In this document: positions 6,559 to 41,660 of the stretch, piece by piece | How the letters are laid out: the number at the start of each line of letters is the position of its first letter | How positions within the stretch are numbered: the stretch's first letter is position 1 | NCBI GenBank assembly: GCA_965230295.1 | Contig: OZ246001.1 | Span: 2,592,001-2,656,000 of the forward strand | DNA: 64,000 bases | Direction: 5' to 3' | Origin: Marinicella sp. | GTDB lineage: Bacteria > Pseudomonadota > Gammaproteobacteria > Xanthomonadales > Marinicellaceae | The notes under the pieces: generated by a model | The model's database searches: none | What the model saw: only the letters and a program-made list of their open reading frames with translations | Told to the model about the DNA's origin: nothing | Position numbers and translations under genes: made by a program

Positions 6559-6584
6559 TTAAAAACGAATAAGTATGCTAACTG

Positions 6585-7445: not shown

Positions 7446-7446
7446 T

Positions 7447-14860: not shown

Positions 14861-14869
14861 GAAAGCAAT

Positions 14870-16064: not shown

Positions 16065-16145
16065 ATCGGGTCAATAAATCAGCAGTGCATGGCAGTAGGA
16101 AATGAAATGACATATAATCTTAACCCAAAAACAAGATTGCGAAAC

Positions 16146-17119: not shown

Positions 17120-17120
17120 A

Positions 17121-17477: not shown

Positions 17478-17478
17478 G

Positions 17479-18135: not shown

Positions 18136-18143
18136 GGCAATCA

Positions 18144-19115
18144 ATGCAGGACAATCAAGGCATGGCCTTATTGATGGCATTGGTGATGTTGGCCATAGCC
18201 AGCACCTTAGCCGTAAGTATTTGGTATAACAGTCAATTGTCGGTGGCCAGAATCAACAACTTACAACAAACTTACCAAGCCAAGCATTACAGCCAAGGCA
18301 TGTTGTTGTGGGCCAGTGATCTGTTGCGAGAAGATTATGCTCAAGACGAATACACCCATGACAGTTCATTGGATGCTTGGCAGCAAGTTATCCAGGGCAT
18401 GTTGGTTGAAGATGCCATTTTATCAGGCACTTTGGTTGGTTTAAGTGGCCGTTTCAATGTCAATAATGTGGTCATTAATGGGGTGCAGAACTCTGATCAG
18501 TTGGCTTATTTACGTCGTTTGTTAATGGCCCTCGAATTGGATGTGAACATAGCTGCAAAAATCATTGATTGGATCGACACCGATCAGGTACCCGAACCCA
18601 ATGGCGCTGAAGATTTTATCTATTTGGCCAAAAGCCCAGCTTATCAAACCAGTGGCGGCCCCTTTCGACACATCGAAGAACTGGCGTTGTTGGATGGCAT
18701 GGATGCAGAAACGCATCAAATTCTGTCACAATATTTAGTGGCTTTACCCCCGATAAACGATCAACCCACTCGAATGAACGTTAACACCATGCCACCAGTG
18801 ATGATCAAAGCTCTGAGTCCATTAATCAGCAATGATATGGCAGTGCGCTTATACCAAAGCGGCCAAGCTGACTTTTTACGATTGGAAGATTTTTTTACGC
18901 ATGAGTCGATCAGGTACAAATTGAACGATGATGTTAAACAATCGATCAGGCCCATGTTGAGTGTGCAGACCCGTCATTTCCAAGCCAGTGCTTTGGTGCA
19001 AATGGAAGCCAGCAGTTTTGTGATGTACGCCATGCTCAATCGAAGAACAGATGGCAGCGCTCGGGTCATAAGTCGTTCATTAAGTCCATATATGCCCAAT
19101 CCTTTGGTAAACTAA
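18144..19115 (+). CDS. gspK: Type II secretion minor pseudopilin GspK
   Basis: GMALLMALVML (no Glu5, as typical of GspK), GRFNVNN, IIDWIDTD, GAEDFIY, MNVNT. Start could also be GTG 18132. Confidence 0.92.
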   Translation: MQDNQGMALLMALVMLAIASTLAVSIWYNSQLSVARINNLQQTYQAKHYSQGMLLWASDLLREDYAQDEYTHDSSLDAWQQVIQGMLVEDAILSGTLVGLSGRFNVNNVVINGVQNSDQLAYLRRLLMALELDVNIAAKIIDWIDTDQVPEPNGAEDFIYLAKSPAYQTSGGPFRHIEELALLDGMDAETHQILSQYLVALPPINDQPTRMNVNTMPPVMIKALSPLISNDMAVRLYQSGQADFLRLEDFFTHESIRYKLNDDVKQSIRPMLSVQTRHFQASALVQMEASSFVMYAMLNRRTDGSARVISRSLSPYMPNPLVN

Positions 19116-27738: not shown

Positions 27739-29109
27739 TTACAGCCACCATGTGGCCATTGAAGCAATGATGATGGCGCCCATTAAATTCAATTTAAAAC
27801 CCTGTTTGATCATGCTTTTTATGGGCACTTGTTCTGAGCCAAAAACGATGGCGTTGGGGGCGGTAGCAACCGGCAGCATAAAAGCACAACTGGCACTGAT
27901 GGCTGCCGGCACCATGATCTTGATGGGATCGATACCCATGGCAGTAGCTGCTGACATAAGAACCGGCATCAAGATGGCCGTTGTGGCGGTGTTGCTGGTT
28001 ATCTCTGTTAAAAATGTGATGGACAAACAAATGGCCAAGATCAACACGAACACATGCAAATCTTTTAAAAACATCAATTGATCAGCCAACAAAGCACTGA
28101 GTCCTGTATTTTTGAAGGCGGCGGCAATGACCATGCCGCCAGAAAACAGCAACAACACCCCCCAAGGGATGCTGTTGGCAGTTTGCCAGTTCAACAGTTT
28201 GTTTTGTTTGCCGTCTGAAATCATGAATAACGCCACCACCCCCAACAAAGCCACCGAAGCGTCATTGGCAAAAGGTAAATCAAGCCATGTTTTCCAACCA
28301 CCAAAGGGCGCGGTGCGTGTCACCCACAACAAGGCAGTGATGGCAAATACCCATAACGTGCGTTTTTGTGCGGTGTTCAGGGATTTTTGCTCGATACCGG
28401 TATTTTCAATGTTCATATGGGAGCTGACTTGTTTGGTCATCAGCCACACCATCACTGGAAAAAATACCAACACCATGGGGAAGACTTGTTGCATCCATGG
28501 TAAAAATCCAAGTTCAGTGCCAGTACCAATTTGGTAATTCTGAATCATGATTAAATTGGGTGGCGTTCCAACCGGAGTCATGGTACCACCAATACTGGCT
28601 GCATAAGCGATGCCTAATAACAGCAAAGTGGCAAACTTTTTATCCGGATTGCTGCTTAATATGGCCAATGCTATGGGTAATAACATCAATGTGGTGGCGG
28701 TGTTTGATATCCACATGCTGAGTAAGAAAGCAGTCAACATAAATCCCACAATGATTCGCTTCGGGTTGTTGGTGCCAATGACATGCAAAACTTTATGAGC
28801 CAAATATCGATGGGTGTTGCTGTGGGCCATGGCTGTAGAAAGGAGGAAACCACCCAGTAGCAGAATAATCAAAGGGCTACCGTAAGCTTGACCTACTTCA
28901 TTGGGACTGATGATGCCTAACAGCGGAAACAGGGCCACAGGCAGCAATGAAGCCACAGGGATTGGTAGCCATTCTGTGACCCAAAATATGGCGGTGGTGC
29001 TGGTGATCAGTAAAGTGATGAATTGGCCATGGTCGATCAGATTTTGCCATTTAAGTACAATGATTAAGGAATAAACTACCAGGAATGTGCTGATTTTTTT
29101 GATGGTCAT
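27739..29109 (-). CDS. SLC13/DASS family anion:sodium symporter
   Basis: Multi-TM protein with MWISNTATT, GTPPN, TEITSNTATT, AFMLPVATAPNAIV. Confidence 0.93.
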   Translation of the reverse strand: MTIKKISTFLVVYSLIIVLKWQNLIDHGQFITLLITSTTAIFWVTEWLPIPVASLLPVALFPLLGIISPNEVGQAYGSPLIILLLGGFLLSTAMAHSNTHRYLAHKVLHVIGTNNPKRIIVGFMLTAFLLSMWISNTATTLMLLPIALAILSSNPDKKFATLLLLGIAYAASIGGTMTPVGTPPNLIMIQNYQIGTGTELGFLPWMQQVFPMVLVFFPVMVWLMTKQVSSHMNIENTGIEQKSLNTAQKRTLWVFAITALLWVTRTAPFGGWKTWLDLPFANDASVALLGVVALFMISDGKQNKLLNWQTANSIPWGVLLLFSGGMVIAAAFKNTGLSALLADQLMFLKDLHVFVLILAICLSITFLTEITSNTATTAILMPVLMSAATAMGIDPIKIMVPAAISASCAFMLPVATAPNAIVFGSEQVPIKSMIKQGFKLNLMGAIIIASMATWWL

Positions 29110-29170: not shown

Positions 29171-29200
29171 TTGTAATTTTACCCGAATAAAATTTATGAT
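29171..29200 (+). promoter_or_regulatory. Candidate sigma70 promoter of the lipase operon with an overlapping inverted repeat
   Basis: TTGTAA-18nt-TATGAT; AATTTTA-N6-TAAAATT at 29175-29194. Confidence 0.4.
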
Positions 29201-29228: not shown

Positions 29229-31337
29229 ATGAAACTAAAACCATTCCTTTTGACTTTAACATCTATTGTTTTGCTACAAGCATGTAGTAGCAGCAGTAAC
29301 TCACCCCGGGCAGTTGATGCTCCGCCAGCGACCAATCCTGGTGGTGGTGTGGTTACAGGTGTTATTGAAGCCATCTATAACCCGGCTTCAGGTGATCCAG
29401 CACAGGTACCCATTCCAACCAATTTATTCTTGCTGGGTACCACTGATCTGACCATGAACATCCCAGTGGCAGACCCCACTGATTTTTCTGATCCCTTGGT
29501 TGCCATCAATGCCTTAGACGGTTTCAGTACTGTGGCTCCATGGTCTACCAACTTTTCAGTACCCGTAGCTGCTGCTTCAGTTAACCCAGGCAGTGTCAAA
29601 GTTTACGAAGTGGCCTTGAGTGGTCCAGGTGGTGCTGTGATAGGTGTTAATGCTGAATTGACATTTGGTGTGGATTTCGTAGCGGTTGCTAATGGCAGCA
29701 GTATTGCCATCGTGCCGATTAAGCCATTGAAACAATTGACCTCATATATGGCCATCGTCACCAACGGCATTCAAGATGACAACGGCAACGCCGCCACTCC
29801 ATCACAAACTTATTTCTTATCTCAGCGCACATCCCCATTGGTGGACGGAACCGGCAACAGTACCGATCCGTTGATTGACAACGCCACCGCAGCGGCCTTA
29901 GAGCCACTGCGACAATTGACCAACTTCAGAGAAGCGGCTGCGGCTTCACAAGGTGTGGACCCCAGCACAATTGTGGTGTCTTGGACCATGACCACACAAT
30001 CCATCACTCCGGTCTTATCTGCAGTGAAAGACATCACTGGCCCTGGTGCTTCAACCTTGGCACCAACCGGGTTGTCTACAGCGGCGGTTGGCGGTTTTGG
30101 TTTAGCTGATATTTACATCGGTACCATGACTTCGCCTTACTACTTGACGGCTCCCAGTGCAACCAATCCATTGGCTCCATTGAATGAGTTTTGGCGAGCG
30201 GCTCCTGGTGCTTATGTAGGACCATTTGCAGGCTTGGGTTTAGACCCAACATCTACCAATCTGACATTGGCGAACCCCATTCCGGTAGCCACCAGTATGC
30301 AGAATTTACCTGTGTTGATGACCGTACCTAACGCGAGTTCCGGTATGACCAAACCAGCAGCTGGCTGGCCTATCATGATCTTCCAACATGGCATCACGCG
30401 TGACCGAACTGACATGCTGGCAGTGGCAGATACCATGGCGTCCATTGGGTTTGCAGTGGTGGCCATTGATTTAGCCATGCACGGCATCACAGATCCGACC
30501 AATCCCTTCTACATTGAAAATACACCGTTTGCACCGATTGCCAGTGAACGAACTTTTGATGTCGATTACGTTAACAACGTAACAGGTGCTCCTGGCCCTG
30601 ATGGCGTGATTGATTCATCGGCTGCTCATTTCATCAACCTGGCCAATTTATTGGTCTCCAGAGACAACACCAGACAAGGCATAGCTGATTTGTTTACCCT
30701 GACAGAATCAATTCCTTTGATGGACATTGATGGTGATGCTGCTGGTGACTTCAACGAAGCCAACATCACATTCGCTGGACAGTCATTGGGCGCAATCACA
30801 GGTACCGGTTACCTGGCATTTGCACCCAACGTACAAAGTGCTGTGTTGTCAGCCCCAGGTGGTGGTATCGCCAATCTGTTGATTGGTTCTCCAACTTTCG
30901 GTCCTCGCATCATTGCTGGTCTACAAGCAGCAGGTGTGGAACAAGGTACCACTACATTTAATTTATTCGTTTTGGCCACACAAACCACCGTTGATGCGGC
31001 TGACCCGATAAACCTGGGTGGATTTGCGGCCTTGCAAAACAATATTTTGTTGCATGAAATCTTAGGTGATCAAGTGGTTACCAATACGGTTCCAGGTGCG
31101 CCATTGTCGGGTACAGAACCTTTGATTGCAGCCATGGGTTTGACTTCTTATTCAGAGTCAGCCTTCAATCCTGAAGGTTTAGATGCTGCAGTCAGATTCA
31201 CCGCAGGTGATCACGGCAGCTTATTGAGTCCAGCTGCTTCTCCTGAAGCCACGGCTGAAATGCAAGGCCAGATGGCTGCATTCCAGGCCACAGGTGGTAC
31301 GACCTTGAATGTCACTAACACCGATGTGATTCAATAA
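29229..31337 (+). CDS. Lipoprotein lipase/phospholipase, Pla-1/Cef/VolA-like
   Basis: Lipobox LQA|C with Ser at +2; AINALDGFST N-domain; WPIMIFQHGIT, AIDLAMHG, FINLANLLVSRDNTRQ; nucleophile GQSLG; GDQVV; GDHGSLL. Confidence 0.88.
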   Translation: MKLKPFLLTLTSIVLLQACSSSSNSPRAVDAPPATNPGGGVVTGVIEAIYNPASGDPAQVPIPTNLFLLGTTDLTMNIPVADPTDFSDPLVAINALDGFSTVAPWSTNFSVPVAAASVNPGSVKVYEVALSGPGGAVIGVNAELTFGVDFVAVANGSSIAIVPIKPLKQLTSYMAIVTNGIQDDNGNAATPSQTYFLSQRTSPLVDGTGNSTDPLIDNATAAALEPLRQLTNFREAAAASQGVDPSTIVVSWTMTTQSITPVLSAVKDITGPGASTLAPTGLSTAAVGGFGLADIYIGTMTSPYYLTAPSATNPLAPLNEFWRAAPGAYVGPFAGLGLDPTSTNLTLANPIPVATSMQNLPVLMTVPNASSGMTKPAAGWPIMIFQHGITRDRTDMLAVADTMASIGFAVVAIDLAMHGITDPTNPFYIENTPFAPIASERTFDVDYVNNVTGAPGPDGVIDSSAAHFINLANLLVSRDNTRQGIADLFTLTESIPLMDIDGDAAGDFNEANITFAGQSLGAITGTGYLAFAPNVQSAVLSAPGGGIANLLIGSPTFGPRIIAGLQAAGVEQGTTTFNLFVLATQTTVDAADPINLGGFAALQNNILLHEILGDQVVTNTVPGAPLSGTEPLIAAMGLTSYSESAFNPEGLDAAVRFTAGDHGSLLSPAASPEATAEMQGQMAAFQATGGTTLNVTNTDVIQ

Positions 31338-31384
31338 GGGAGATGACAATGAAAAATACAAATAAAAAGCGTGGAGTACAACAG

Positions 31385-33283
31385 ATGGCTCAAAACAACA
31401 CCAGATTGAAATTAACACCTTTGAAAGCTGCCATGCTGGCAGTTGCCATGGGTGCAACAGGCTCGGCCACAGCGGCCGAACTGTGGAACAATGGTGATTA
31501 TTCATTGAATATTGATACCACCGTTTCATACGGTGCGGCTTGGCGGATTGCTGACCGTGATGACCGTTTGATCGGTAAATCCAACCTCAATCCTTTCGTT
31601 GGTGTGGATTTGGCAACCGGCCAGTCTTCATCTCTGGCGCAAAGAATTGCGGCACCTGGTCGATGGTCAATCAACTCTGACAATGGTAACTTGAACTATG
31701 ACCAAGGGGATTTGATTTCTAATGCCATTAAATTCACTTCAGACATTGCATTCAGTGGGCCTACATGGGGCGCCTTCTTCCGTGTTAACGGATTTTATGA
31801 CTTTGAAAATGCTGACAACGACGATTTATCAAGAACTGCCAAAGAATTTGTCGGTGAAGACTTCAGGTTGTTAGATGCCTATGTCTATAAAGATTTTGAT
31901 ATTGGTAACCAGATTGCTTCAGTTCGATTAGGACGACAAGTGGTTTCATGGGGTGAATCCACATTCATCCAGCAAGGCATCAACGTCATCAACCCCATCG
32001 ACGTTTCGAAGATTCGTGTGGCTGGTGCTGAGCTGAAAGAAGCCTTCTTACCGATTGACATGATTTCATTCTCATCCAGTATCACCGATAACCTATCGGT
32101 AGAAGCTGTCTATATGTTTGAGTTTGAACAGACCGACCCAGATCCAGCAGGTACTTATTTCGCAACCAACGATTTCGCCACTCCAGGTGGTGAATATGTG
32201 GCCTTGGGTTTTGGTATTGTGCCTGAGTTGGCCAATGCTGGCGCGATTGCGCAATTGCCATTACCGCCATCATTGATTGCGGCTACTTTGGGTAACATCA
32301 ACAACTTCTCAATATTGAGGACTTCAACCCCCGCCACCGATGATGATGGCCAGTATGGCATCGCTTTCCGTTACTATGCAGAGCAATTGAACAACACTGA
32401 ATTTGGCTTGTACTACTTGAACTATCATTCAAGATTACCCATGATCAGTGGTAATGCACTGGGGCAACCTGGCGTAGGATTGGGTGTTTCTTCGCCCAGT
32501 TCAGGTTCCTATTTCACTGAATACCCGGAAGACATTGAATTGTATGGTTTGAGCTTCAATACCACCATCAATTCGTTGGGTGTTTCCTTACAAGGTGAGT
32601 TGTCTTACCGTCCTAATGTACCTTTACAAATTGACGATGTGGAAGTGTTGTTTGCAGCCCTTTCTCCATTGAATCCATTGATTCCGGCGGAATATGATCG
32701 ATTCGTGTCACAATTAGGTAATTTTGCACCAGGTGAATACATCCGTGGTTGGGAACGGCATGAAGTGTCTCAGTTACAGTTCACAGCAACCAAGTTATTT
32801 GGCCCAGGTTTTATGGGCAGTGACCAAATTGTGTTACTGGGCGAAGTGGGTTTCACCAATGTATGGGATTTACCTGATCAAAGTGTGTTGAGGTACAACG
32901 GCCCAGGCACCGATACCGGTGGCGGCCCCAGTACTTTGACTGGTGGCACCAGCAGGAATCCTGTGACTGAAAGCTCAGATTTCTTCGCCACATCATTCTC
33001 TTGGGGATATCGTTTGGTTACCCGTTTTGAATACAATTCAGTGTTCGGTTCATCTTGGAACATTGCCCCAAGACTGGCCTTTAACCATGATGTTAACGGC
33101 ACCACTCCAGGACCTGGTGGGAACTTTATTGAAGGCAGGAAGTCTTGGACTGTAGGTGTCAACGGTACTTATTTGGAAAAATGGAGTGCTGATGTCAGCT
33201 ACACCAACTTCTCCGGAGCAGGTATCCACAACTTGATATCTGACCGAGATTTTGCTTCTATCAACATTAAATATTCGTTCTAA
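31385..33283 (+). CDS. DUF1302 family outer-membrane protein
   Basis: Signal peptide; IDTTVSYG, NSDNGNLNY, LLDAYV, RLGRQVVSWGESTF, NYHSRLP; C-terminal DRDFASINIKYSF (beta-signal Phe). SD GGAG precedes ATG 31385. Confidence 0.9.
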   Translation: MAQNNTRLKLTPLKAAMLAVAMGATGSATAAELWNNGDYSLNIDTTVSYGAAWRIADRDDRLIGKSNLNPFVGVDLATGQSSSLAQRIAAPGRWSINSDNGNLNYDQGDLISNAIKFTSDIAFSGPTWGAFFRVNGFYDFENADNDDLSRTAKEFVGEDFRLLDAYVYKDFDIGNQIASVRLGRQVVSWGESTFIQQGINVINPIDVSKIRVAGAELKEAFLPIDMISFSSSITDNLSVEAVYMFEFEQTDPDPAGTYFATNDFATPGGEYVALGFGIVPELANAGAIAQLPLPPSLIAATLGNINNFSILRTSTPATDDDGQYGIAFRYYAEQLNNTEFGLYYLNYHSRLPMISGNALGQPGVGLGVSSPSSGSYFTEYPEDIELYGLSFNTTINSLGVSLQGELSYRPNVPLQIDDVEVLFAALSPLNPLIPAEYDRFVSQLGNFAPGEYIRGWERHEVSQLQFTATKLFGPGFMGSDQIVLLGEVGFTNVWDLPDQSVLRYNGPGTDTGGGPSTLTGGTSRNPVTESSDFFATSFSWGYRLVTRFEYNSVFGSSWNIAPRLAFNHDVNGTTPGPGGNFIEGRKSWTVGVNGTYLEKWSADVSYTNFSGAGIHNLISDRDFASINIKYSF

Positions 33284-33301
33284 GAACAGAGAGGACATTA
33301 C

Positions 33302-34666
33302 ATGAAGTTATTAAAGAAAACACTTATTTCAACTTTAATTGGATTGACAGTCGTCGCTGGTTCAGCACAAGCAGGCCCCAAACCTGATGAATTGGAACGG
33401 TTATCAACTGATTTAACGCCAATGGGTTCTGTAAGGGCGGGAAACTCTGATGGCACCATTCCAGCTTGGACAGGTGGTATCACTTCAGCACCGGCAGGTT
33501 ATCAAGTGGGTGATCACCACCCGGATCCCTTTGCAGACGACAATGTGTTATTCACCATTGACAGCAGCAATTACCAGGAACATGCTGCGAAGTTAACACC
33601 CGGTCAAATTGCCATGTTTGAGCGTTATCCAGAAACGTTTAAAATGGACATCTATCCAACCAGACGATCAGCATCATTCCCACAACGTATCTATGACAAA
33701 ACGCGTGAGAATGGTCGTACCGGTACATTGGTTGCTGATGGTGAAGGTGTGGCCAGTGTTGCAGAGGGCTTTCCATTCCCGTTTCCTGAAAATGCCTATG
33801 AATTGATTCTGAATCATAAATTGAAGTTCAAAGGTTCAGGCGGGGTACGCTACAACAATCAAGTGGCGCCGAGTACCAAAGGTAAATACACATTGGTCCG
33901 TCTTCGTGAAGAATTGTATGGTAAATACTATGTGCCAGGTAACACCATTGATGACATAGACAACATCCTGTTGTATTTCTATCAAGTGGTTGAGTCACCA
34001 GCTCGTTTGGCAGGTCGTGTGTTGTTGGTCCATGAAACCATGAACCAGAAAGAAACACCTCGTCAAGCCTGGATTTATAACCCAGGTCAGCGCCGTGTAA
34101 GACGCGCACCTAATGTGGCTTATGACAATCCTGGAACTGCATCTGATGGTTTGAGAACCAATGACATGACCGACATGTTCAATGGAGCCATGGATCGATT
34201 TACATGGGATTGGACTGAAACCAAAGAAATGTATGTCCCTTATAACTCATACAAGGCTCACAGTTTTGATTCAAAATTGGCTGACATGGTCAAGCCGGGT
34301 CACCTAGACTCCAGTTACATGCGTTATGAGTTACATCGTGTTCATGTGATTGAAGCCAATTTACGTGATGGCTTCAGACACATCAACAGCCGACGTACTT
34401 TCTACTTAGATGAAGACAGTTATCAAATTTTGTTGACCGACCATTACGACAGACGTGGTGAGTTGTGGCGCTTTTCTGAAGCACACAGCATCAATTACTA
34501 CGAAGTTCCAACATTCTGGTCTACCATCGAAACCCACCATGACTTACAGTCAGGCCGTTATGTGGCAGTGGGCTTAGATAACCAGGATCAGGTCAACACC
34601 TTCAACACGCCTTTGAGCGAAAACAATTACACACCAAGTGCTTTGCGTAAACGCGGAAGACGCTGA
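33302..34666 (+). CDS. DUF1329 family periplasmic protein
   Basis: Signal peptide; LTPMGSVRAGNSDGTIPAWTGG, AWIYNPGQRRVRRAP, YVPYNSY, RYELHRV, FYLDEDS, YTPSALR. Confidence 0.92.
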   Translation: MKLLKKTLISTLIGLTVVAGSAQAGPKPDELERLSTDLTPMGSVRAGNSDGTIPAWTGGITSAPAGYQVGDHHPDPFADDNVLFTIDSSNYQEHAAKLTPGQIAMFERYPETFKMDIYPTRRSASFPQRIYDKTRENGRTGTLVADGEGVASVAEGFPFPFPENAYELILNHKLKFKGSGGVRYNNQVAPSTKGKYTLVRLREELYGKYYVPGNTIDDIDNILLYFYQVVESPARLAGRVLLVHETMNQKETPRQAWIYNPGQRRVRRAPNVAYDNPGTASDGLRTNDMTDMFNGAMDRFTWDWTETKEMYVPYNSYKAHSFDSKLADMVKPGHLDSSYMRYELHRVHVIEANLRDGFRHINSRRTFYLDEDSYQILLTDHYDRRGELWRFSEAHSINYYEVPTFWSTIETHHDLQSGRYVAVGLDNQDQVNTFNTPLSENNYTPSALRKRGRR

Positions 34667-34695
34667 TCTGTGTTAATCAGTTGAAGTTTTAATTC

Positions 34696-34736
34696 AATGG
34701 CTGTGGGTATTTTTGATACTCATGGCCATTTTTTTT
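34696..34736 (+). terminator. Internal terminator/attenuator after DUF1329
   Basis: 15-bp stem AATGGCTGTGGGTAT / ATACTCATGGCCATT (with G-U pairs) followed by a T run. Confidence 0.65.
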
Positions 34737-34746
34737 GGTAGAAATT

Positions 34747-35679
34747 ATGATGAAAATGAAATTTAAAATTGTGGCATTGATCTGCTTTTCTATGGTGTGT
34801 TCATCTGCCTGGTCCCAACAACCAGCAGAAGTGATGCCATTGGCAGATGAGTCCTTGGTGTTGTCCATAACAAAAGTAGGTGCCTCACTGCTCATGGTAG
34901 GTGAAAGAGGCCACATCCTGAAAAGTAAAGACGAAGGGAAAACGTGGTATCAGATTGAAGGTGTACCGGTCGATGTGGTGTTGACCAAAGTGGTGGCCTA
35001 CAACAACCATGTATGGGCAGTAGGACATGATGCAGTCATCATACACAGTGATGATGCTGGCGAGACATGGGAATTACAATTTTATGATGCCGACCGAGAA
35101 GTACCATTTTTATCAGCTTATTTCATGAGCGAAACCACCGGGTTTGTGGTGGGTGCTTATGGGACCATCTTCTCAACCACTGACAGTGGTGAAACTTGGG
35201 AAGACAATTTAATTGATGAGGAATTGGATTACCATTTGAATGACATCACCCAAGCTGCAGATGGGAACTTATACATTGCTGCAGAAGCCGGATACTTTTT
35301 CCGAAGTTTAGATCAGGGCGCCACGTGGGAAGCCATAGAGCTACCTTACATGGGTTCTATGTTTGGTGTTGTCTCCTTACCTGAACAAGTGGTGTTGTTT
35401 GGTTTAAGGGGCAATATTTTGGTCTCGGCTGACCAAGGTGAAACGTGGGAAGAAGTCTATACTGATTTAGCCAATAATTTATTTGGAGCAGATTTACTGA
35501 GTGAAAACAAAGTCTTGATGGTGGGTGCCAATGGTGCCCGTTTGATTTATGAAAATAATTCAGTAGAAATTTTTCCCGGAGCGGATTCTGGTGACGACTA
35601 TGCCGATGTCCTGGTGTTGGGCAACCAAGCTATCTTGGTTGGCGAGACTGGACTTAAATCACAATCAATTGGACAATAA
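34747..35679 (+). CDS. YCF48/BNR-repeat beta-propeller protein
   Basis: Signal peptide; repeated Asp-boxes SKDEGKTW, SDDAGETW, TTDSGETW, SLDQGATW, SADQGETW; VGERGHIL; GLRGNIL. Confidence 0.9.
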   Translation: MMKMKFKIVALICFSMVCSSAWSQQPAEVMPLADESLVLSITKVGASLLMVGERGHILKSKDEGKTWYQIEGVPVDVVLTKVVAYNNHVWAVGHDAVIIHSDDAGETWELQFYDADREVPFLSAYFMSETTGFVVGAYGTIFSTTDSGETWEDNLIDEELDYHLNDITQAADGNLYIAAEAGYFFRSLDQGATWEAIELPYMGSMFGVVSLPEQVVLFGLRGNILVSADQGETWEEVYTDLANNLFGADLLSENKVLMVGANGARLIYENNSVEIFPGADSGDDYADVLVLGNQAILVGETGLKSQSIGQ

Positions 35680-35690
35680 AGGAAGCGACT

Positions 35691-38072
35691 ATGAATCAAA
35701 ATACAAATAAAAATGGCTTCGCGGCCTTTTGTGAATCCATCCTTTTTAAGAACAAGAAAATAATCATTTTCTTATTGGCCTTTATGACTGGTGCCTTGGG
35801 TTACTTTGCCAGTCAATTGAAAGTGGATGCCGGTTTTGAAAAGCAACTTCCCCTCGATCATGAATACATGAAAACATTCATGGAGCATGAAAAATTCAGG
35901 GGTGCCAATCGCATATTGGTGTCAGTGATGGATGACAGTGGCAACATGTTCAATGAGCAGTTTTTTGACAAACTTGAAGAAGTGACCGATGCCGTGGTGT
36001 TTATTCCCGGGGTCAATCGGGCCAGTGTCAAATCCATTTTCACACCTAATGTCAGGTTTGTTGAAGTGGTTGAAGATGGTTTTGCTGGTGGTAATGTGAT
36101 TCCAGCAGATTACAGTCCTTCGCAAACCATGTTCGAAACCATTCGTGGCAACATTGTGAAAGCGGGTGTCTTGGGGCGCCTGGTGGCTGAAGATTTTAAT
36201 GGTGCCATGGTCTGGGCTGATCTCCAGGAAAGAGACCCGCAAACGGGTGAAAAAGTGGATTACCAGGAGATCGCCAAAGAGTTGGAAGCGATCAGAACCA
36301 AATTTGAAGGCGAAGGGCAAACCGTTCATATCATCGGCTTCGCCAAGATCGTTGGCGACATTGCAGACGGTGCCAAATCCGTGTTGTACTTCTTTGCTTT
36401 AGCCATACTGATCACTGCCATCTTGCTTTATGGTTATTCGAAGAATTGGAAACTGACACTTTACCCCATTCTCTGTTCCTTAGTGGCTGTCGTTTGGCAA
36501 ATGGGCTTTTTGAAATTGATGGGCATGGGTATAGACCCCATGAATATCTTGACGCCTTTTTTGGTCTTTGCCATCGGAGTCAGTCATGGTGTGCAGATGA
36601 TATCAGGCTGGACTGACCAAATGGTTAAACAGCCGACAGGTGAGAAAAGCGCTGACTCTGCAGCACGTGCAGCCTTTTGTGCCTTATTGGCGCCAGGTGT
36701 GATTGCCTTGTTGTCAGATACGATTGGTTTTGCAACCATCTATTTTATCAACATAGAAATTATTCAGGAATTGGCCATCACTGCTACAGTTGGTGTGGCA
36801 TTGATTATCATCACTAATTTGATTTTATTACCGTTGTTATTATCCGGTATCAAAATGAAAAAAGTCGATGCATTCTGTGCCAAATTCAGTGGCAAGCAAG
36901 AAGTGGGCGGCATTTGGAAAGGCATTGCGGGATTTGCCAAGACGCCTTTGGCGTCATTGTCTGTATTGGTCGCCATTGGCTTGTTTACATTTGGTTACAT
37001 CAAAAGCCAGGACATGCAAATAGGTGATTCCCAAGCCGGTGTGCCAGAATTGCGACCGGATTCCAGATACAACACCGATGCCATGACCATCAGTAATGAA
37101 TTTTCGTTGGGTGTGGATATGATCAATGTGATAGCAGAAACTTCATCCAATGCCTGTACTGAAAGTTTCAAAGCCATGAAGAACATTGATCGTTTTGCGT
37201 GGCATATGGCGAATGTTGAAGGCGTACAAAAAGTCATAACCTTGTCTCAATTTGCAAAAATCATTACCGCTGGTTGGAATGAAGGTAACATCAAGTGGCG
37301 AGAGCTGTCGCGCAACAATTACGTGATGCGCCAATCCTTATCAGGGATTGAAACCGATACTGGTTTGTTGAATCAGGATTGTAGTGTCATGCCGATCACG
37401 ATATTCACTGAAGACCACAAAGCCACCACCATCAATACTGTCATTGCCGCAGTTAAAGCTTATCAAGCGGATGCGCCACCTGCATTGGATGACACCGGCG
37501 GGTTGCTTGAAGGTGAAGTTAAATTCAGGTTGGCCACAGGTAATGCGGGTGTAATGGCCTCAACCAATGATGTGGTGAAAGGGGCACAAATGCCGATGCT
37601 GATCATGGTTTATGGCGCCATTATTCTGTTGTGTTTGTTGACCTTCAGATCAATCACGGGCACCATCGCCATTGTCACGCCATTGGCACTGGTTTCATTG
37701 TTGGCCTATGCACTGATGGCCTATCTGGGCATTGGCTTGAAAGTAAACACCTTGCCAGTAGTGGCATTGGGTGTAGGTATTGGTGTTGATTATGGAATTT
37801 ATATTTTCAGCAGACTGCAATCTTTACTTAAATCTGGGTTTAATCTGTATGATGCATATAAAGAAACCTTGCGACTAACTGGTAAGGCTGTGGTATTTAC
37901 CGCATTGACTTTAGGTATCGGTGTGGGGACTTGGATGTTCAGTGACTTGCAGTTCCAGGCAGACATGGGTATCTTGTTGGCCTTTATGTTTGTATTGAAC
38001 ATGGTTGGGGCCATGTTGTTGCTACCTGCATTGGCATATTGGTTGATGCCAAAATACAGAAAAGGTTTATAA
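35691..38072 (+). CDS. RND/MMPL family transporter
   Basis: Two-repeat multi-TM protein with large periplasmic loops; FAIGVSHGVQ, GIGVDYGIY, TGKAV, FQADMG. Confidence 0.92.
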   Translation: MNQNTNKNGFAAFCESILFKNKKIIIFLLAFMTGALGYFASQLKVDAGFEKQLPLDHEYMKTFMEHEKFRGANRILVSVMDDSGNMFNEQFFDKLEEVTDAVVFIPGVNRASVKSIFTPNVRFVEVVEDGFAGGNVIPADYSPSQTMFETIRGNIVKAGVLGRLVAEDFNGAMVWADLQERDPQTGEKVDYQEIAKELEAIRTKFEGEGQTVHIIGFAKIVGDIADGAKSVLYFFALAILITAILLYGYSKNWKLTLYPILCSLVAVVWQMGFLKLMGMGIDPMNILTPFLVFAIGVSHGVQMISGWTDQMVKQPTGEKSADSAARAAFCALLAPGVIALLSDTIGFATIYFINIEIIQELAITATVGVALIIITNLILLPLLLSGIKMKKVDAFCAKFSGKQEVGGIWKGIAGFAKTPLASLSVLVAIGLFTFGYIKSQDMQIGDSQAGVPELRPDSRYNTDAMTISNEFSLGVDMINVIAETSSNACTESFKAMKNIDRFAWHMANVEGVQKVITLSQFAKIITAGWNEGNIKWRELSRNNYVMRQSLSGIETDTGLLNQDCSVMPITIFTEDHKATTINTVIAAVKAYQADAPPALDDTGGLLEGEVKFRLATGNAGVMASTNDVVKGAQMPMLIMVYGAIILLCLLTFRSITGTIAIVTPLALVSLLAYALMAYLGIGLKVNTLPVVALGVGIGVDYGIYIFSRLQSLLKSGFNLYDAYKETLRLTGKAVVFTALTLGIGVGTWMFSDLQFQADMGILLAFMFVLNMVGAMLLLPALAYWLMPKYRKGL

Positions 38073-38099: not shown

Positions 38100-39275
38100 A
38101 TGGCTAAAAATCATATTTTGCGCATCGGCGAGGATGGCAACCCCATATCCTTGTATACCTACGATGCGCAAAACAATGCCTGTACCATCACAGCTGTTCC
38201 TCAATGGACAGATGGTGCACTGAAACAAATTGAGTTGGTGTTGTTGGTGCCTGCAACCTGGGTGTATCACAGTCAGACCCAAGTGGCATCTAAAAACATG
38301 GACTTGTTGGCTAAATCAATCCCATTTGCTATAGAAGAAGAATTGAGCAATGAGGTAGAGGATAACTATTTTGCATTCAAGCTGAATGAAAATGGCTCAC
38401 AAGCAGTCATAGCGATTGAAAAAAACCATTTAGACCAACTGAATCTGGCCATCGATAAAAACAACTTAACAATCAGTTCCATTCACAGTGAAGTGGATTG
38501 GTTGCCAGAAATAAAGGATTCAGTGGTCATTTGGAGTGATACAGAAACATCTTTAGTTCGGTTTGGTGAAGAACAAACCATGCGGATTGCCAACCACCAA
38601 ATCAAGCAATTACTCACCGTCTTTGCACAAGACATGAAAAAAATTGTTTGTAACGATGTTGAAAAGGTGACAGGTGTCGATTTACCGGTTTCTTCGACTT
38701 TAGATGCCAGTGCCTGCTGTGCTCATTTGATCAATCAGGAAGCCATTGATTTGTATGTGGACGAATTAAAAACCACTACAGATACTGAAGACACTAAACA
38801 ATGGTTCCTACCTAAGGTTCTGGGTTTGTTGCTGGTGGTAAGTTGGGTAGCCATCCAAGGGATTCAGTGGCTGAATCTGCAGCAATCAATTGATGAGCTA
38901 AAAACTCAACAGGAAGATATGCTGAAAAGCCAGTTTGGTGATGTGGCACCCGTTGAGTTGGTCGATCCATTTGCAGCCTTTCAATCCAGATTGAAATTGC
39001 AAGATTCTCAATCTGGTTCTGGTACCGATATCCTGTTAGATGTTGTTGACTACATCGGGCAAACAACACAGCAACACAAGTCAGTCAGGCTGGGTGGTTT
39101 GCGCTTGGTTGAACAGAAGATGGAAATACAAATCACGGCCCCCAACATTGCTTTTATCAATGAATTTCATCAGTCCTTGCAGCAGCGAGCCTATGAATAC
39201 AATGTTCAAATAGGCGTCAATGAATTGTCTGATGACAATTCATTTCGGTCGATCTTAACAGTGGTGCCCCGATGA
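38100..39275 (+). CDS. gspL: Type II secretion protein GspL
   Basis: LLVPA...SIPFAIEEEL actin-like cytoplasmic domain, single TM helix, periplasmic domain. Followed by gspM and gspN. Confidence 0.85.
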   Translation: MAKNHILRIGEDGNPISLYTYDAQNNACTITAVPQWTDGALKQIELVLLVPATWVYHSQTQVASKNMDLLAKSIPFAIEEELSNEVEDNYFAFKLNENGSQAVIAIEKNHLDQLNLAIDKNNLTISSIHSEVDWLPEIKDSVVIWSDTETSLVRFGEEQTMRIANHQIKQLLTVFAQDMKKIVCNDVEKVTGVDLPVSSTLDASACCAHLINQEAIDLYVDELKTTTDTEDTKQWFLPKVLGLLLVVSWVAIQGIQWLNLQQSIDELKTQQEDMLKSQFGDVAPVELVDPFAAFQSRLKLQDSQSGSGTDILLDVVDYIGQTTQQHKSVRLGGLRLVEQKMEIQITAPNIAFINEFHQSLQQRAYEYNVQIGVNELSDDNSFRSILTVVPR

Positions 39276-39751
39276 AAAACTGGTTACAAAATTTATCTGA
39301 CAATGAACGCCGGCTGTTATGGGTTGGTGGATTGTTAATTGCAGTGGCTTTGGTATGGGTGTTGGTTTATCGACCAGTGACAGCACACATAGATAAACAA
39401 GTCAGTTTGAAAAACCGCTTAACCAATCAATTGGCACAGATGCAAGAAATGTCAAGGTCAACTCCTGGAAACCCAGGTCAGCAGATCATTCCCATTCCTG
39501 TTGGCATGACGTTTTCATCCTGGGTAGACCAACAGTTGCGTTTGGTCAACCTACAAAACAATGTCAATCGAACAGAACCCATTGACCAAAGCAGTTTGTC
39601 AATTTGGCTACAAGGTGCTTCTTTCGATCAGGTGATAGATTGGTTACATATGTTATCAAGTACTTATGCTGTTAAAGTGGATCAGATTGACGTAAACGCG
39701 GTTGATGCTTCTTTGGGATTGACCAACATCAGAATGAGGTTAGTGAAGTAA
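39272..39751 (+). CDS. gspM: Type II secretion protein GspM
   Basis: WLQNLSDNERRLL plus TM helix; IWLQGASFDQVIDWL. ATGA overlap with gspL. Confidence 0.88.
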   Translation: MKNWLQNLSDNERRLLWVGGLLIAVALVWVLVYRPVTAHIDKQVSLKNRLTNQLAQMQEMSRSTPGNPGQQIIPIPVGMTFSSWVDQQLRLVNLQNNVNRTEPIDQSSLSIWLQGASFDQVIDWLHMLSSTYAVKVDQIDVNAVDASLGLTNIRMRLVK

Positions 39752-40512
39752 TGTTAAGTACCGGAGACAGACTGGGTAAGCTGTTCAAGCTTATCTTTAT
39801 CTTATTGTTGTTGTCCATTTTAGCCATAGCAGTGACTCCTTTGAGTTTCTACTATGATTATGTAAAAAAACACCTCAATCCTGTGAGTTTAACGGGCATC
39901 AGTGGCAGTGCCGTGAAAGGCAGTGCAGATTCACTTTCATACATGTCAGCACCCTTGGGTAAAACGGAATGGCTCTTGTATCCAAAAACTTTTAAAGGGT
40001 TGGGTGGTAAAGTCAGGGTCTATCAACAGAACTACGATTTGACTTTTGATATGCGTGAGTTGTCAGCAGATTCGCATTCATTCAACAACGTCAAAGGCTT
40101 TATTGATTGGCAGTTAATCAAACCATTCATGCAAATGCGATATGGTCAGATTGATGGGTATGCCCAAGTTAATTTACATTCTGTGGAATATAACAACAGC
40201 ACCGGTTTTGACAGAATGGAAGGTGAAGTGGTGTTGCAAGATTTTAAACTGATCACACCAACCGCCAAAGACCTCGGTGAAGTCAAAGTAACGTTCGAGA
40301 CCAAAAATAACGGGATGATAGTGGGCAACTTCACCAGTCAATCCAATGCCTTGAGTGTGTCGGGAGTTCTGGTCATACAACCGCGTCGTTGGCAACTGAA
40401 CTTAGACATCATTCCTAAAGCCGGACATTTTGAGCTGGATGCCGTATTGAATTCAGTCGGAGATGCACGTCGTGGTGGTGGCAGGCGCTTGAATTTAGCT
40501 GGCTTCTATTGA
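39751..40512 (+). CDS. gspN: Type II secretion protein GspN
   Basis: N-terminal TM helix, LTGISGSAVKGSA, DLGEV. Follows gspM with TAATG coupling. Confidence 0.75.
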   Translation: MLSTGDRLGKLFKLIFILLLLSILAIAVTPLSFYYDYVKKHLNPVSLTGISGSAVKGSADSLSYMSAPLGKTEWLLYPKTFKGLGGKVRVYQQNYDLTFDMRELSADSHSFNNVKGFIDWQLIKPFMQMRYGQIDGYAQVNLHSVEYNNSTGFDRMEGEVVLQDFKLITPTAKDLGEVKVTFETKNNGMIVGNFTSQSNALSVSGVLVIQPRRWQLNLDIIPKAGHFELDAVLNSVGDARRGGGRRLNLAGFY

Positions 40513-41412
40513 TGGCTGTTTGATCACTGGTCTTTTACTGATCAGGATCCATATGCCAAAACCGATGATAGGTAGCGTCAGCAGGTGGCCCATGGTCATC
40601 CATTCAAATGCAATGTAACCACGATTGGCATCCGGTTCACGGAAAAATTCTACGATAAATCTGGTGATGCCATAACTGAGCAAGAAGGCGGCTGAAACTG
40701 TGCCTCGTCGTTTGGCTTTATTGGCCACAATCCATACCACAAAGAAAGTAACCAATCCTTCACCGAAGGCTTCATAGAGTGTTGAAGGGTGTCTGGCAAA
40801 AGCGGCCAATTGTCCCTGTTCATAGAGTTCCTGCCAAGCACCTTCAGGCATATTGGCAGCTTGTAGGTGCACGGGTAATGAATCTGGAAAAATCATGGCC
40901 CATGGATGTTGGGTCAGGCGGCCCCATAATTCGCCATTGAGAAAGTTACCCATGCGTACAGCCAGTATACCAGTGGGTACCAAAGGTGCAATAAAATCAC
41001 TGATCTCAAAGAATGTCTTCTGGCTTTTCTTTTTAAAATATAGCATGGCCACCAGGACTCCAGTTAAGCCACCATGGAATGACATGCCACCTTCCCAAAC
41101 CCGCAATGGCAACATAGGATCATCAAATAAAGATGTGTCATTATAAAACATCACCCAACCCAGTCTGCCGCCAACAATGATGCCGATGGCGCCATAAAAA
41201 AGAAAATCAGAGAGCTGTTCGGAGTTCCAAGAAGAAGGGTACTTTTTGATGCGGTACTTACCCAACAGGTAATAAAAAGCAAAGCCGATTAAGTAGGTGA
41301 TGCCATACCAATGAATGTTAAATGGCCCAACCACACCCAGTAAGGGAAGATCAAAGGGGCCCAGTGAAAAAAACACAGGATCAAAGTCAATAATCGGAAA
41401 ATGGTTAGACAT
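40495..41412 (-). CDS. lgt: Prolipoprotein diacylglyceryl transferase
   Basis: HWYG, GGRLG, WEGGMSFHGG, RMGNFLNGELWGR, RHPSTLYE, RFIVEFFREPD. Confidence 0.96.
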   Translation of the reverse strand: MSNHFPIIDFDPVFFSLGPFDLPLLGVVGPFNIHWYGITYLIGFAFYYLLGKYRIKKYPSSWNSEQLSDFLFYGAIGIIVGGRLGWVMFYNDTSLFDDPMLPLRVWEGGMSFHGGLTGVLVAMLYFKKKSQKTFFEISDFIAPLVPTGILAVRMGNFLNGELWGRLTQHPWAMIFPDSLPVHLQAANMPEGAWQELYEQGQLAAFARHPSTLYEAFGEGLVTFFVVWIVANKAKRRGTVSAAFLLSYGITRFIVEFFREPDANRGYIAFEWMTMGHLLTLPIIGFGIWILISKRPVIKQPSIEAS

Positions 41413-41660
41413 GTATTCGAGAAAATTTTTAACAACTTCTGCATTATATGCATTTGTTACTTGGATGGTTAATCTTTATTGAATCAGGGTCACTTGGGTT
41501 GTTGATTATCGACCAGGTGAAAATGGCTTAATAACGGCTAAAAGTAACGAGTTTGTAGGATTTCACAAGGAAAAAATACCTAACAATATGTTAAGATTAA
41601 TGGGATGTGTGCTGTGGCATGCAGCAATCAATAATAATCAAGCAAAATAGAGGAATTTAT

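Follow-up and report, generated by a model that had tools for sequence, protein, structure and literature searches.

A VolA-Type Lipase Gene in One Row with a DUF1302/DUF1329/BNR/RND Quartet in Marinicella sp.: A Candidate Lipid-Harvesting Module with the Quartet in the Place of FadL

Described systems with related parts

In Vibrio cholerae the gene of the lipoprotein lipase VolA is tied to that of an outer-membrane channel (vca0863/vca0862). The two genes are co-transcribed in the order FadL, then lipase, and in the model put forward, lysophosphatidylcholine is hydrolysed at the surface and uptake of fatty acids is coupled to this step, as described in PMC3656444. A tetrapartite HAE3 RND system, AmeABCD of Castellaniella defragrans, is encoded in the order DUF1302, DUF1329, COG4447 BNR and HAE3 RND within a monoterpene island that has no lipase (PMC6394551). 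AmeABCD is the only quartet of this kind with a published functional study, whose authors conclude efflux: the deletion strain showed decreased monoterpene tolerance and increased Nile Red accumulation, and it grew poorly on limonene as sole carbon source and normally on oxidised terpenoids, with partial rescue by acetate (PMC6394551). In our reading, the growth data would also fit an uptake defect.

The same four families are found in Pseudomonas putida (PP_0765/PP_0766 and PP_2018/PP_2019) and in co-fit clusters of Shewanella and Kangiella. Co-folding predicted barrel–DUF1329 and DUF1329–BNR–RND complexes, and "a novel transport system" was suggested (PMC10866462); a DUF1302–DUF1329 model reached an ipTM of 0.84 (PMC13499233). 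That the quartet transports substrates and is required for the use of fatty esters has already been proposed in print (Thompson 2020 preprint; Foldy PMC10866462). A link between lipase and quartet, or a complementarity of quartet and FadL, was not found in print, and the tie between lipase and quartet is the new part of the present analysis.

The gene row in the Marinicella window

The window, that is, the whole stretch of 64,000 nucleotides analysed, comes from a marine bacterium of the genus Marinicella and contains at positions 29229–38072 (+) five co-directional ORFs coding for lipase, DUF1302, DUF1329, BNR and RND proteins. The intergenic gaps from lipase to RND are 5, 18, 68 (or 56 when counted to the ATG) and 11 bp, in agreement with the five closely spaced genes of the first-pass annotation. 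The features of the region are as follows.

27739–29109, minus strand: CitMHS/DASS-type Na+ symporter gene, divergent (PF03600, 211 bits; PF00939, 176 bits)
29171–29200, plus strand: sigma-70-like promoter match 5′ of the lipase gene (consensus scan, 9/12)
29229–31337, plus strand: VolA/Pla-1 family lipoprotein lipase, 702 aa (TIGR03502, PF12262)
31343–33283, plus strand: DUF1302 outer-membrane barrel, 646 aa (PF06980, 583.8 bits)
33302–34666, plus strand: DUF1329 periplasmic protein with LolA-like fold, 454 aa (PF07044, 467.3 bits)
34696–34738, plus strand: terminator-like hairpin and T-run between the DUF1329 and BNR genes (16-pair stem, then T8)
34747–35679, plus strand: BNR/Ycf48-like beta-propeller with signal peptide (PSII_BNR, 83.5 bits)
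35691–38072, plus strand: RND-superfamily inner-membrane transporter, HAE3/MMPL type, 793 aa (MMPL, 88.1 bits)
38100–40512, plus strand: gspL, gspM and gspN, type II secretion (T2SSL, T2SSM and T2SSN families)

The lipase, encoded by a single-copy gene, reached 409.5 bits with TIGR03502 (VolA/Pla-1; cut-off 383.9) and 80.7 bits with PF12262, and shares with VolA the lipoprotein signal and the GxSxG serine hydrolase motif. An N-terminal tether and an Ig-like Lipase_bact_N domain are followed by a C-terminal alpha/beta hydrolase domain. The N-terminus, MKLKPFLLTLTSIVLLQAC|SSS, carries the lipobox LLQAC with Ser at +2, signal peptides and lipobox being judged by eye against the usual sequence rules. 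The GQSLG motif occupies residues 517–521, and among 47 homologues S519 and H387 were conserved in 100%, D614 in 98% and H662 in 96%. The protein thus has the features of an outer-membrane-sorted lipoprotein hydrolase with intact GQSLG and His motifs, as previously annotated, and by homology to VolA it is predicted to be surface-exposed. Its enzymatic activity is likewise a prediction. Unlike in the VolA–FadL pair, the genome is devoid of FadL, and the lipase is partnered by a DUF1302 barrel of 18 strands together with three more envelope proteins, encoded 3′ of the lipase gene.

The DUF1302 protein, also encoded by a single-copy gene, has a signal peptide and the C-terminal end ...KYSF, and its AlphaFold model (pLDDT 73, pTM 0.73) contained 18 long strands, consistent with the beta-barrel with terminal Phe expected for it. 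Foldseek matched it best to AlgE and to the OccK/OccAB channels (E values around 1e-11 to 1e-10, TM 0.50–0.57). A LolA-like fold, for which structure prediction had been proposed, was found in DUF1329: the LolA_like profile gave 35.3 bits, and the model (pLDDT 82, pTM 0.85) matched LolA3 9tp6 (E 5e-15, target TM 0.83) and 4z48, a DUF1329 protein (E 2e-14), with further matches to LolA, RseB and MucB. Its signal peptide ends in AQA|G; reading of the N-termini by eye gave a signal peptide for BNR as well. The BNR protein matched solved Ycf48 (8am5) by sequence with 85 bits. Its start is given as TTG 34735 in the ORF list; ATG 34747 is the more likely one.

The RND protein is an MMPL-type inner-membrane transporter by its profile matches, which besides MMPL included the Patched SSD (29.4 bits) and HAE3 TIGR00921 (139.7 bits, under its cut-off of 351.9). 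It belongs to the same superfamily as MmpL3/HpnN and the NPC2–NPC1 system, and membrane-embedded Asp and Tyr are conserved in it (D282 and D700-Y701, 20 orthologues); a putative soluble lipid-binding partner is a further likeness. In contrast, MmpL3 and HpnN export lipids, and the match of the RND protein to MmpL3 and MmpL4 structures was weak (MmpL3, 34 bits).

The hairpin between the DUF1329 and BNR genes had a free energy of −20.6 kcal/mol (z −2.89), and a stem with T-run was present at the equivalent position in 11 Marinicella-type loci, with altered loop and upper stem. It is possibly an internal attenuator dividing the row into lipase–barrel–DUF1329 and BNR–RND. The Pseudomonas quartet, which occupies two loci and for which no esterase partner was identified, is split at this same position, whereas here a candidate hydrolase lies in the row. 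The promoter match upstream of the lipase is weak evidence, since such sites are overall rarer than in shuffled sequences.

At the borders of the row, gspL-gspM-gspN start 27 bp past the RND gene as neighbours with only putative membership in the module, and gsp genes occur at this place only in Marinicella-type loci. Many Lysobacterales loci likewise have a homologue of the symporter upstream of their lipase.

Distribution of lipase, quartet and FadL

Within the order, the lipase was present in 38 relatives spanning 12 GTDB families. DUF1302 came directly 3′ of it and in the same orientation in 35 of these, the locus being cut by a contig edge in the other three (G011, G019, G039), and two relatives devoid of the lipase (G025, G036) were also devoid of DUF1302. 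In a set of 79 lipase loci DUF1302 came directly next in 48, seven were cut by the contig end right past the lipase, and 24 were Competibacteraceae-type loci without the quartet, where the lipase stands alone adjoining an ABC-F gene. Conservation of the adjacency across loci indicates more than chance. Four Lysobacterales lipase loci (L169, L170 Dokdonella soli, L175 and L200) had no quartet within the flanks seen.

A class-level sample of 249 genomes contained 26 with the lipase, 29 with strong DUF1302 and eight with both. Outside the order, lipase and quartet were linked in five of these eight, as lipase-quartet (twice), lipase-ECH-quartet, lipase-ECH-SDR-x-quartet and quartet-lipase, counted as three arrangements; in two lineages, enoyl-CoA hydratase genes separate the lipase from the quartet. 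A sixth genome (L125) had a solitary DUF1302 followed 12 bp on by the lipase. Among 71 new named loci, the quartet was found in 30, DUF1302 and then the contig end in four, FadL directly upstream in 18, neither partner in ten, and nine were cut. The quartet-linked loci include MAGs labelled Chromatiaceae, Ectothiorhodospiraceae, Thiotrichaceae, Deferrisomatales and Geopsychrobacter. The lipase is therefore co-conserved with the quartet (35/38 relatives, 5/8 outside the order).

These data bear on whether lipase and quartet are neighbours merely through shared ancestry in one order, with no functional tie. The 17 quartet-linked Xanthomonadales lipases form one clade in the lipase tree, and a single event therefore accounts for the majority of linked cases. 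However, the quartet label requires six changes on this tree, at least three of them forced by well-supported branches, and partner swaps therefore happened repeatedly; with the recurrence of the linkage outside the order and in loci titled as other phyla, the stand-alone barrel-lipase pair and the joint absence from two relatives, this already disfavoured explanation is hardly credible. The quartet also extends beyond lipolysis: 21 of the 29 quartet genomes of the class-level sample had no VolA-type lipase (search at E≤1e-5), and the nearest neighbours in 24 lipase-free quartet loci were mixed (AMP-binding in 4/81 proteins, LuxR-type in 3/81).

No match to PF03349 (FadL) was found at E≤1e-3 in the genome of the window, a 97.9%-complete single contig, which does encode, for beta-oxidation, a dehydrogenase of the FadE type (346 bits) and a FadB-like protein of full length (442 bits). 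In the class-level sample, FadL was immediately upstream of the lipase and co-directional in 9 of 21 lipase loci without the quartet, and the Vibrio order is kept in these nine and in the 18 named loci. With canonical FadL defined as E≤1e-60, the 26 lipase genomes comprised 17 with FadL only, six with the quartet only, two with both and one with neither. Either channel was present in 25/26 lipase genomes versus 98/223 others (Fisher p=9e-8), and canonical FadL in 4/29 quartet genomes versus 94/220 others (Fisher p=0.002), both tests overstating significance owing to relatedness among the genomes. FadL and the quartet occurred together in four genomes (G048, G224, G254, G267), and in one of these the lipase was linked.

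Adjacency, the presence of either channel in 25/26 lipase genomes, the FadL depletion and the lack of FadL in the genome of the window thus give good support to the first-pass proposal that the quartet stands in FadL's place beside a VolA-type lipase, and the comparison across genomes suggests that it does FadL's job, the intake of fat-digestion products. Unlike AmeABCD, read as an exporter, the quartet is distributed here as the alternative to an importer. The remainder of that proposal, import through barrel, shuttle and MMPL protein with a fixed direction of the RND transporter, we infer only.

Modelled docking and direction of transport

A complex model of barrel residues 45–646 with lipase residues 20–300 scored 0.83, the best of three controls 0.00; one of three runs scored 0.00, contact agreement between runs was at least 0%, and the partner pLDDT was at least 62. 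The 0.83 mark was met by 58/80 solved complexes and 2/110 mismatched pairs, counts that hold only roughly because own alignments were used. In the model the N-terminal part of the lipase sits at the outer loops of the barrel, with every barrel contact confined to three long loops, L5, L6 and L7; the tether in the modelled interface is conserved but specific to the Xanthomonadales clade. A search of solved structures by sequence gave no relative of the lipase or barrel chain. Physical docking of the lipase on the barrel is therefore a prediction of the model.

On balance, the best explanation of the row is a module for lipid harvesting, with the quartet probably replacing FadL as the entry route for hydrophobic products. 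The surface lipase would cleave exogenous acyl esters (lysophospholipids, phospholipids or other fatty esters) while docked via tether and Ig-like domain on extracellular L5–L7; the hydrophobic cargo would cross the barrel, be picked up in the periplasm by LolA-like DUF1329, pass to the BNR-propeller/RND pair at the inner membrane and end in beta-oxidation or membrane synthesis. The identity of the cargo and its inward direction are presumed, and the RND protein may serve in energising the transport or in accepting the cargo.

To our knowledge, all bacterial RND, HAE3 and MmpL transporters of known direction are exporters. Eukaryotic NPC1 takes sterol from the soluble carrier NPC2 and inserts it into a membrane; the analogy demonstrates no more than that inward transport is possible within the superfamily. 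An AmeABCD-like quartet could act in self-protection, pumping lipase-made, membrane-active free fatty acids and lysolipids from the inner membrane and periplasm, with uptake by another route. The exporter interpretation of AmeABCD (PMC6394551), the MmpL3-like Asp/Tyr relay retained at D282 and D700-Y701, the exporters MmpL3 and MmpL4 as nearest solved relatives and the exporter AlgE as top fold match of the barrel are in line with such efflux, and a detergent-making lipase would favour a linked pump. Yet the barrel matches Occ uptake channels equally well, the quartet shares its lipase-adjacent place with the importer FadL and tends to exclude it, the genome has beta-oxidation genes and no FadL, and enoyl-CoA hydratase genes intervene in two lineages. 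Moreover, P. putida quartet mutants are described as failing only on esters (Tween 20, butyl stearate) and as doing well on free laurate and myristate, which would be the toxic compounds under this reading (Thompson preprint, bioRxiv 10.1101/2020.07.04.188060). Efflux is thus considered unlikely.

Outward traffic of another kind, i.e., export of an envelope lipid or surfactant precursor that the docked lipase trims or releases, or remodelling of the outer leaflet by it, would accommodate the modelled docking just as well, which fits either direction. "Export of a cell wall component" was proposed by Price et al. from pleiotropic co-fitness phenotypes (as given in bioRxiv 10.1101/072470), and the HAE3 relatives HpnN and MmpL3 move lipids outward (cited in PMC6394551). 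This reading is quite improbable, since the only characterised member of the lipase family is described as catabolic and paired with an importer (PMC3656444), FadL complementarity and neighbouring beta-oxidation genes point to nutrient use, and most quartets have no lipase nearby.

Finally, LolA-like DUF1329 and the barrel might carry the lipase itself to the surface with energy from the RND protein. DUF1329 shares its fold with lipoprotein carriers, the conserved post-Cys tether touches the barrel in the model, and the route of VolA to the surface is left unexplained in its description (PMC3656444). According to the same source, however, VolA is surface-located in V. cholerae and also when made in E. 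coli, which had no DUF1302 in a control panel (0/14 genomes). Such a display function is very improbable also in view of the 17 lipase genomes with canonical FadL and no quartet, the varied contexts of the mostly lipase-free quartets, and the modelled contacts, which lie on the outer loops and not in the lumen.

Anatomy and modelled folds of the five-gene row

Five co-directional, tightly spaced genes make up the row studied here, and their description in the first-pass annotation (ORFs, family matches, motifs and signal peptides) was right in every detail checked.

29229-38072, forward strand: five-gene row of lipase, DUF1302 barrel, DUF1329, BNR and RND genes, the last four being called the quartet
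29229-31337, forward strand: VolA/Pla-1-type lipoprotein lipase gene (the lipase)
34696-34738: 16-pair terminator-like hairpin followed by T8, between the DUF1329 and BNR genes

The source genome is a single contig of 4.0 Mb, 97.9% complete, with one lipase and one DUF1302 gene, and the nearest named loci to the lipase are those of Marinicella species (72-93% lipase identity). The 702-aa lipase passed the whole-protein VolA/Pla-1 model of NCBIfam (TIGR03502, 409.5 bits against a cut-off of 383.9) and has an N-terminal Lipase_bact_N domain (PF12262, 80.7 bits against 22.3). Using the lipobox/+2 sorting rule, its N-terminus was recognized as a lipoprotein signal peptide with a lipobox Cys (MKLKPFLLTLTSIVLLQAC followed by SSS), the +2 residue, read by eye, being other than Asp. 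The catalytic Ser, Asp and His of a serine hydrolase appear to be present: in 47 homologues S519 of the GQSLG motif was 100% conserved, and the putative catalytic D614 (98%) and H662 (96%) were assigned by conservation alone; an H387-G motif is also conserved. Surface exposure and (lyso)phospholipase activity have been demonstrated only for Vibrio cholerae VolA (PMC3656444).

The DUF1302 product (583.8 bits) is a barrel candidate with a signal peptide and the C-terminal end KYSF. Cleavable signal peptides were found in the DUF1329 protein (467.3 bits, plus 35.3 bits to Pfam LolA_like) and in the BNR/Ycf48-like protein, for whose gene ATG 34747 is a more likely start than TTG 34735 of the ORF list. 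The RND protein matched Pfam MMPL above the cut-off, its best NCBIfam match being TIGR00921 (HAE3) with 139.7 bits, under the cut-off of 351.9. The order barrel, DUF1329, BNR, RND recurred in 20 of 24 further loci.

Intergenic gaps of 5 and 18 bp join the lipase, barrel and DUF1329 genes, and from the gene gaps the row would be co-transcribed. The hairpin (-20.6 kcal/mol, z -2.89) is kept in 11 Marinicella-type loci, with the loop and upper stem changed, and may attenuate transcription into BNR-RND. At this same DUF1329/BNR boundary the quartet of Pseudomonas is divided into two loci, as described in the Price and Thompson preprints.

Sequence searches of the PDB gave no match for DUF1329, the lipase or the barrel; DUF1329 and the barrel could be placed by fold search alone. 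The DUF1329 model (pLDDT 82) matched LolA3 (9tp6), a solved DUF1329 protein (4z48), 3bk5, 3buu and LolA, each with a Foldseek probability of 1.00, as well as RseB and MucB. The modelled DUF1329 protein is an open beta-barrel of the LolA/LolB superfamily. In the DUF1302 model (pLDDT 73) 18 long strands were counted, with short turns alternating with long loops; it resembles AlgE and the OccK/OccD/OccAB channels (TM 0.50-0.57), in agreement with the structural picture in PMC13499233. Membership of the FadL/TodX family (PF03349) was rejected, the barrel being of the DUF1302 family with 18 modelled strands instead of 14 with a hatch; a FadL-like mode of action is possible without such membership. 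The BNR protein matched solved Ycf48. Membrane-embedded D282 and a D700-Y701 pair of the RND protein are kept in 20 orthologues, which by analogy with MmpL3 suggests proton coupling.

Distribution of the lipase-quartet linkage

The 40 relatives compared within the order Xanthomonadales/Lysobacterales, from 12 GTDB families, include 38 with the lipase and 37 with DUF1302. In 35 of them the lipase match is followed, on the same strand and contig and after about 100-150 bp, by the start of DUF1302, and in the remaining three lipase-bearing relatives (G011, G019 and G039) the contig stops at the lipase. G025 and G036, which have no lipase, have no DUF1302 either. In a set of 79 named lipase loci DUF1302 directly followed the lipase in 48, with DUF1329, BNR and RND next wherever the contig continues; Marinicella, Aquimonas, Dokdonella, Denitratimonas, Chiayiivirga, Pseudomarimonas and Wenzhouxiangellaceae are among them. 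A contig end cut seven of the 79, and no quartet was present in the other 24, all of the Competibacteraceae type, at most 49% identical and with an ABC-F gene after the lipase. Four Lysobacterales lipase loci with full flanks (L169, L170 Dokdonella soli, L175 and L200) also had no quartet nearby, the neighbours of the first three being uninformative. Chance adjacency of lipase and quartet is ranked low as an explanation of the row.

Outside the order, an even sample of 249 other gammaproteobacterial genomes contained the lipase in 26 and strong DUF1302 (E<1e-100) in 29; both were present in eight, and they were linked in five of those eight as follows. The class-level sample and the two sets of named loci were drawn from overlapping collections, and their counts are not additive.

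Lipase-quartet linkage in the sample of 249 genomes
L087, L089: lipase-quartet arrangement
L098: lipase, enoyl-CoA hydratase, quartet
L100: lipase, hydratase, short-chain dehydrogenase, one further ORF, quartet
L106: quartet first, lipase 17 bp after the RND gene

Seeding a further scan with lipases from outside the order yielded another 71 loci, with the quartet in 30, DUF1302 and then a contig end in four, FadL in 18, neither in ten, and nine cut. The titles of the quartet-linked loci included Chromatiaceae, Ectothiorhodospiraceae, Thiotrichaceae and Chromatiales, together with MAGs labelled Deltaproteobacteria, Geopsychrobacter and Deferrisomatales, in which the binning is possibly wrong. 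Around 24 quartet loci without lipase, the nearest two ORFs on each side (81 proteins) were heterogeneous, the AMP-binding acyl-CoA-synthetase type being the commonest with only four.

Two observations on outside-order lipases are added. At L125:6991-11219 a solitary DUF1302 paralogue, with DUF1329, BNR and RND absent, has an 848-aa lipase of the VolA family 12 bp downstream; this minimal barrel-lipase pair shows the gene order of FadL-VolA and lies between yidC-mnmE on one side and mnmG on the other. In L087, L098, L100, L095, L096 and L104 the lipobox Cys is followed directly by Asp, which by the sorting rule of E. coli would imply retention in the inner membrane; many N-termini in the alignment are incomplete, coming from tblastn segments.

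FadL, the quartet and the direction of transport

VolA of V. cholerae is a surface-exposed lysophospholipase whose product was proposed to enter through FadL, and the fadL and lipase genes are co-transcribed (PMC3656444). The lipase of the row has no such pairing: fadL was found neither in the window nor in the genome (no FadL at E<=1e-3), and DUF1302 adjoins the lipase instead. The genome does carry a FadE-type acyl-CoA dehydrogenase and a full-length FadB-like protein. With an HMM built from lipase-linked FadLs, FadL was absent from the window and from every named lipase locus of the first set, and the same HMM detected the 18 FadLs of the second-scan loci, always directly upstream of the lipase. 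At class level, full-length FadL (279-368 bits) was immediately upstream and co-directional in nine of 21 quartet-less lipase loci; four of the 12 loci with neither (L093, L096, L097 and L101) are cut by contig ends on one side. Other lipase neighbours were beta-oxidation genes, namely a thiolase, a FadE-type dehydrogenase with a hydratase, and an acyl-CoA synthetase.

The first-pass annotation had inferred that the quartet stands in FadL's place, which would point to import of lipolysis products via the barrel, a periplasmic shuttle and the MMPL protein. A survey of canonical FadL (PF03349 at E<=1e-60) and the quartet agrees with the substitution: 17 of the 26 lipase genomes had FadL only, and the other nine were distributed as follows.

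Channel genes in the lipase genomes other than those with FadL only
Quartet only (6): G087, G111, G112, G121, G171, G204
Both FadL and quartet (2): G224, G254
Neither (1): G144, a 780-contig assembly

FadL or the quartet was thus present in 25 of the 26 lipase genomes against 98 of 223 others (p=9e-8), and FadL in four of 29 quartet genomes against 94 of 220 others, the 94 including unpublished G078 and G180 (odds ratio 0.21, p=0.002); since the genomes are related, these p-values are upper bounds on the strength of the evidence. Within the order, strong FadL (317-329 bits) was found only in the two genomes without lipase and quartet and in G035, and the Marinicella genomes are without FadL except for one 51-bit match. 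In a quick maximum-likelihood tree of 47 lipases the 17 Xanthomonadales sequences formed one well-supported clade, and five outside-order quartet-linked lipases were interleaved with FadL-linked and unlinked ones. Since the quartet label requires six changes on this tree, at least three of them forced by well-supported branches, the partners have been swapped repeatedly, as expected if FadL and the quartet are alternatives for one job. The lipase of L050, a locus titled Rhodothermales, nests in the Lysobacterales clade beside L051, so that the MAG label is probably a binning error; the DUF1302 stretch of L050 has one stop codon.

Complex prediction was performed with barrel residues 45-646 and the N-terminal part of the lipase (residues 20-300), in three runs with three controls. 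The runs scored 0.00, 0.83 and 0.83 (median 0.83; best control 0.00), a mark that 58 of 80 solved complexes attained, as did 2 of 110 mismatched pairs; this calibration is only rough, since our own alignments were used for the prediction. The runs agreed in at least 0% of contacts, with a partner pLDDT of at least 62. All barrel contacts (374-383, 442-463, 471-474, 509-516 and 528-537) are in loops L5, L6 and L7, two of which were of low confidence in the barrel modelled alone. Outer-membrane barrels have both termini in the periplasm and the long loops outside, and by this topology L5-L7 would face outward. On the lipase side the contacts take in the tether that follows the lipidated Cys (residues 23-47); this tether is unusually conserved across the Xanthomonadales clade (SSSSNSPRAV..PA.N..G..VTGVITA) and differs in outside-order lipases. 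As no structure related in sequence to either chain has been solved, the predictor is unlikely to have passed by reproducing a known complex. The lipase N-terminal part is thus predicted to sit on the outer loops of the barrel, which is a model and not evidence of binding in the cell. When loop L6 was compared in 22 lipase-linked and 18 lipase-less barrels, those of Xanthomonadales shared a motif; outside the order no clean signature separated linked from unlinked barrels, and for this reason no barrel-lipase co-evolution is claimed.

The reading with the best support is that the row is a harvesting module of the VolA type, with the quartet in place of FadL. Its weak point is the direction of transport. 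To our knowledge, bacterial RND proteins of known direction export, and efflux of self-made detergents by the quartet is possible; the distribution of FadL and the quartet argues for uptake instead. AmeABCD, the quartet of Castellaniella defragrans, was published as an exporter, with efflux of hydrophobic compounds claimed for it (PMC6394551); in our view a defect in uptake would be compatible with its growth data as well. Outward lipid traffic with trimming at the surface by the lipase is likewise possible, and so is display of the lipase by the quartet, which is ranked low. As to the cargo of a harvesting module, P. putida quartet mutants fail on Tween 20 and butyl stearate and not on laurate or myristate, according to the Thompson preprint, and since the failure is on esters only, the cargo may by analogy be an ester, a lysolipid or a fatty acid freed at the mouth of the barrel, rather than free fatty acid in bulk. 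We put forward tentatively, and with some doubt, that the quartet is an energised envelope-spanning importer of lipids and other hydrophobic nutrients, and that in this lineage a surface lipase has been recruited onto the outer loops of its barrel, so that hydrolysis and capture are physically coupled and FadL is dispensable. If so, inward transport would for the first time be shown for an RND system of bacteria.

The quartet itself, its ester phenotype, the predicted contacts between its subunits and the idea of a transport system have already been published. The literature searched on DUF1302 contained no report of the lipase link, and in that on VolA and FadL the VolA paper was the one relevant item. 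Also absent from the literature searched were complementarity with FadL, both in gene position and across genomes, and docking of the lipase on the barrel as modelled here; the same holds for a conserved row of the quartet with a lipase of the VolA type. DUF1302/DUF1329 are widespread (29 of the 249 sampled genomes here, and 629 of 635 P. aeruginosa strains in PMC13499233) and recur in terpene, aromatic, steroid and ester catabolic islands, with export, esterase and transport proposed as roles. A conserved lipase partner of known chemistry suggests a substrate class for this system, and mutual substitution with FadL a likely direction. FadL-less organisms offer a simple growth or uptake test with the phenotype unmasked, making the function and direction of the quartet directly testable. 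Confirmed import would give hydrophobic nutrients a second way across the Gram-negative envelope, an energised one, would overturn the view of bacterial RND systems as export-only, and would bear on bioremediation, on feeding esters or plastics-derived monomers to production strains, and on lipid scavenging by pathogens.

Other genes of the window

15984-19115: gspG, a following ORF, gspJ and gspK (type II secretion)
38100-40512: gspL, gspM and gspN (type II secretion)
27739-29109, reverse strand: CitMHS/DASS-type Na+ symporter gene, divergent from the lipase
3590-15337: chemosensory cluster of CheY-like, CheW, PilJ-type MCP, CheR, a 2156-aa ORF (7447-13917), CheB and CheW
40495-41412: lgt, convergent
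41607-43706: membrane pyrophosphatase

The type II secretion genes are split, gspL starting 27 bp after the RND gene and about 19 kb from gspK; between the two parts are NAD kinase-like, 5'-nucleotidase, PPIase, gluQ-like, GGDEF-EAL, epmB, efp, epmA and DASS transporter genes and the lipase with the quartet. This layout is common to other Marinicella loci and was not seen in other Lysobacterales. The gspL, gspM and gspN genes were rejected as members of the module, as they follow the RND gene only in Marinicella-type loci. In many Lysobacterales loci the lipase has a homologue of the symporter (45-82% identity) upstream of it; a role such as head-group uptake would be pure speculation. From its context, the 2156-aa ORF could be a ChpA-like kinase, which is only a guess. 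The membrane pyrophosphatase scored 1079 bits against the cut-off of 926 of the sodium-translocating equivalog.
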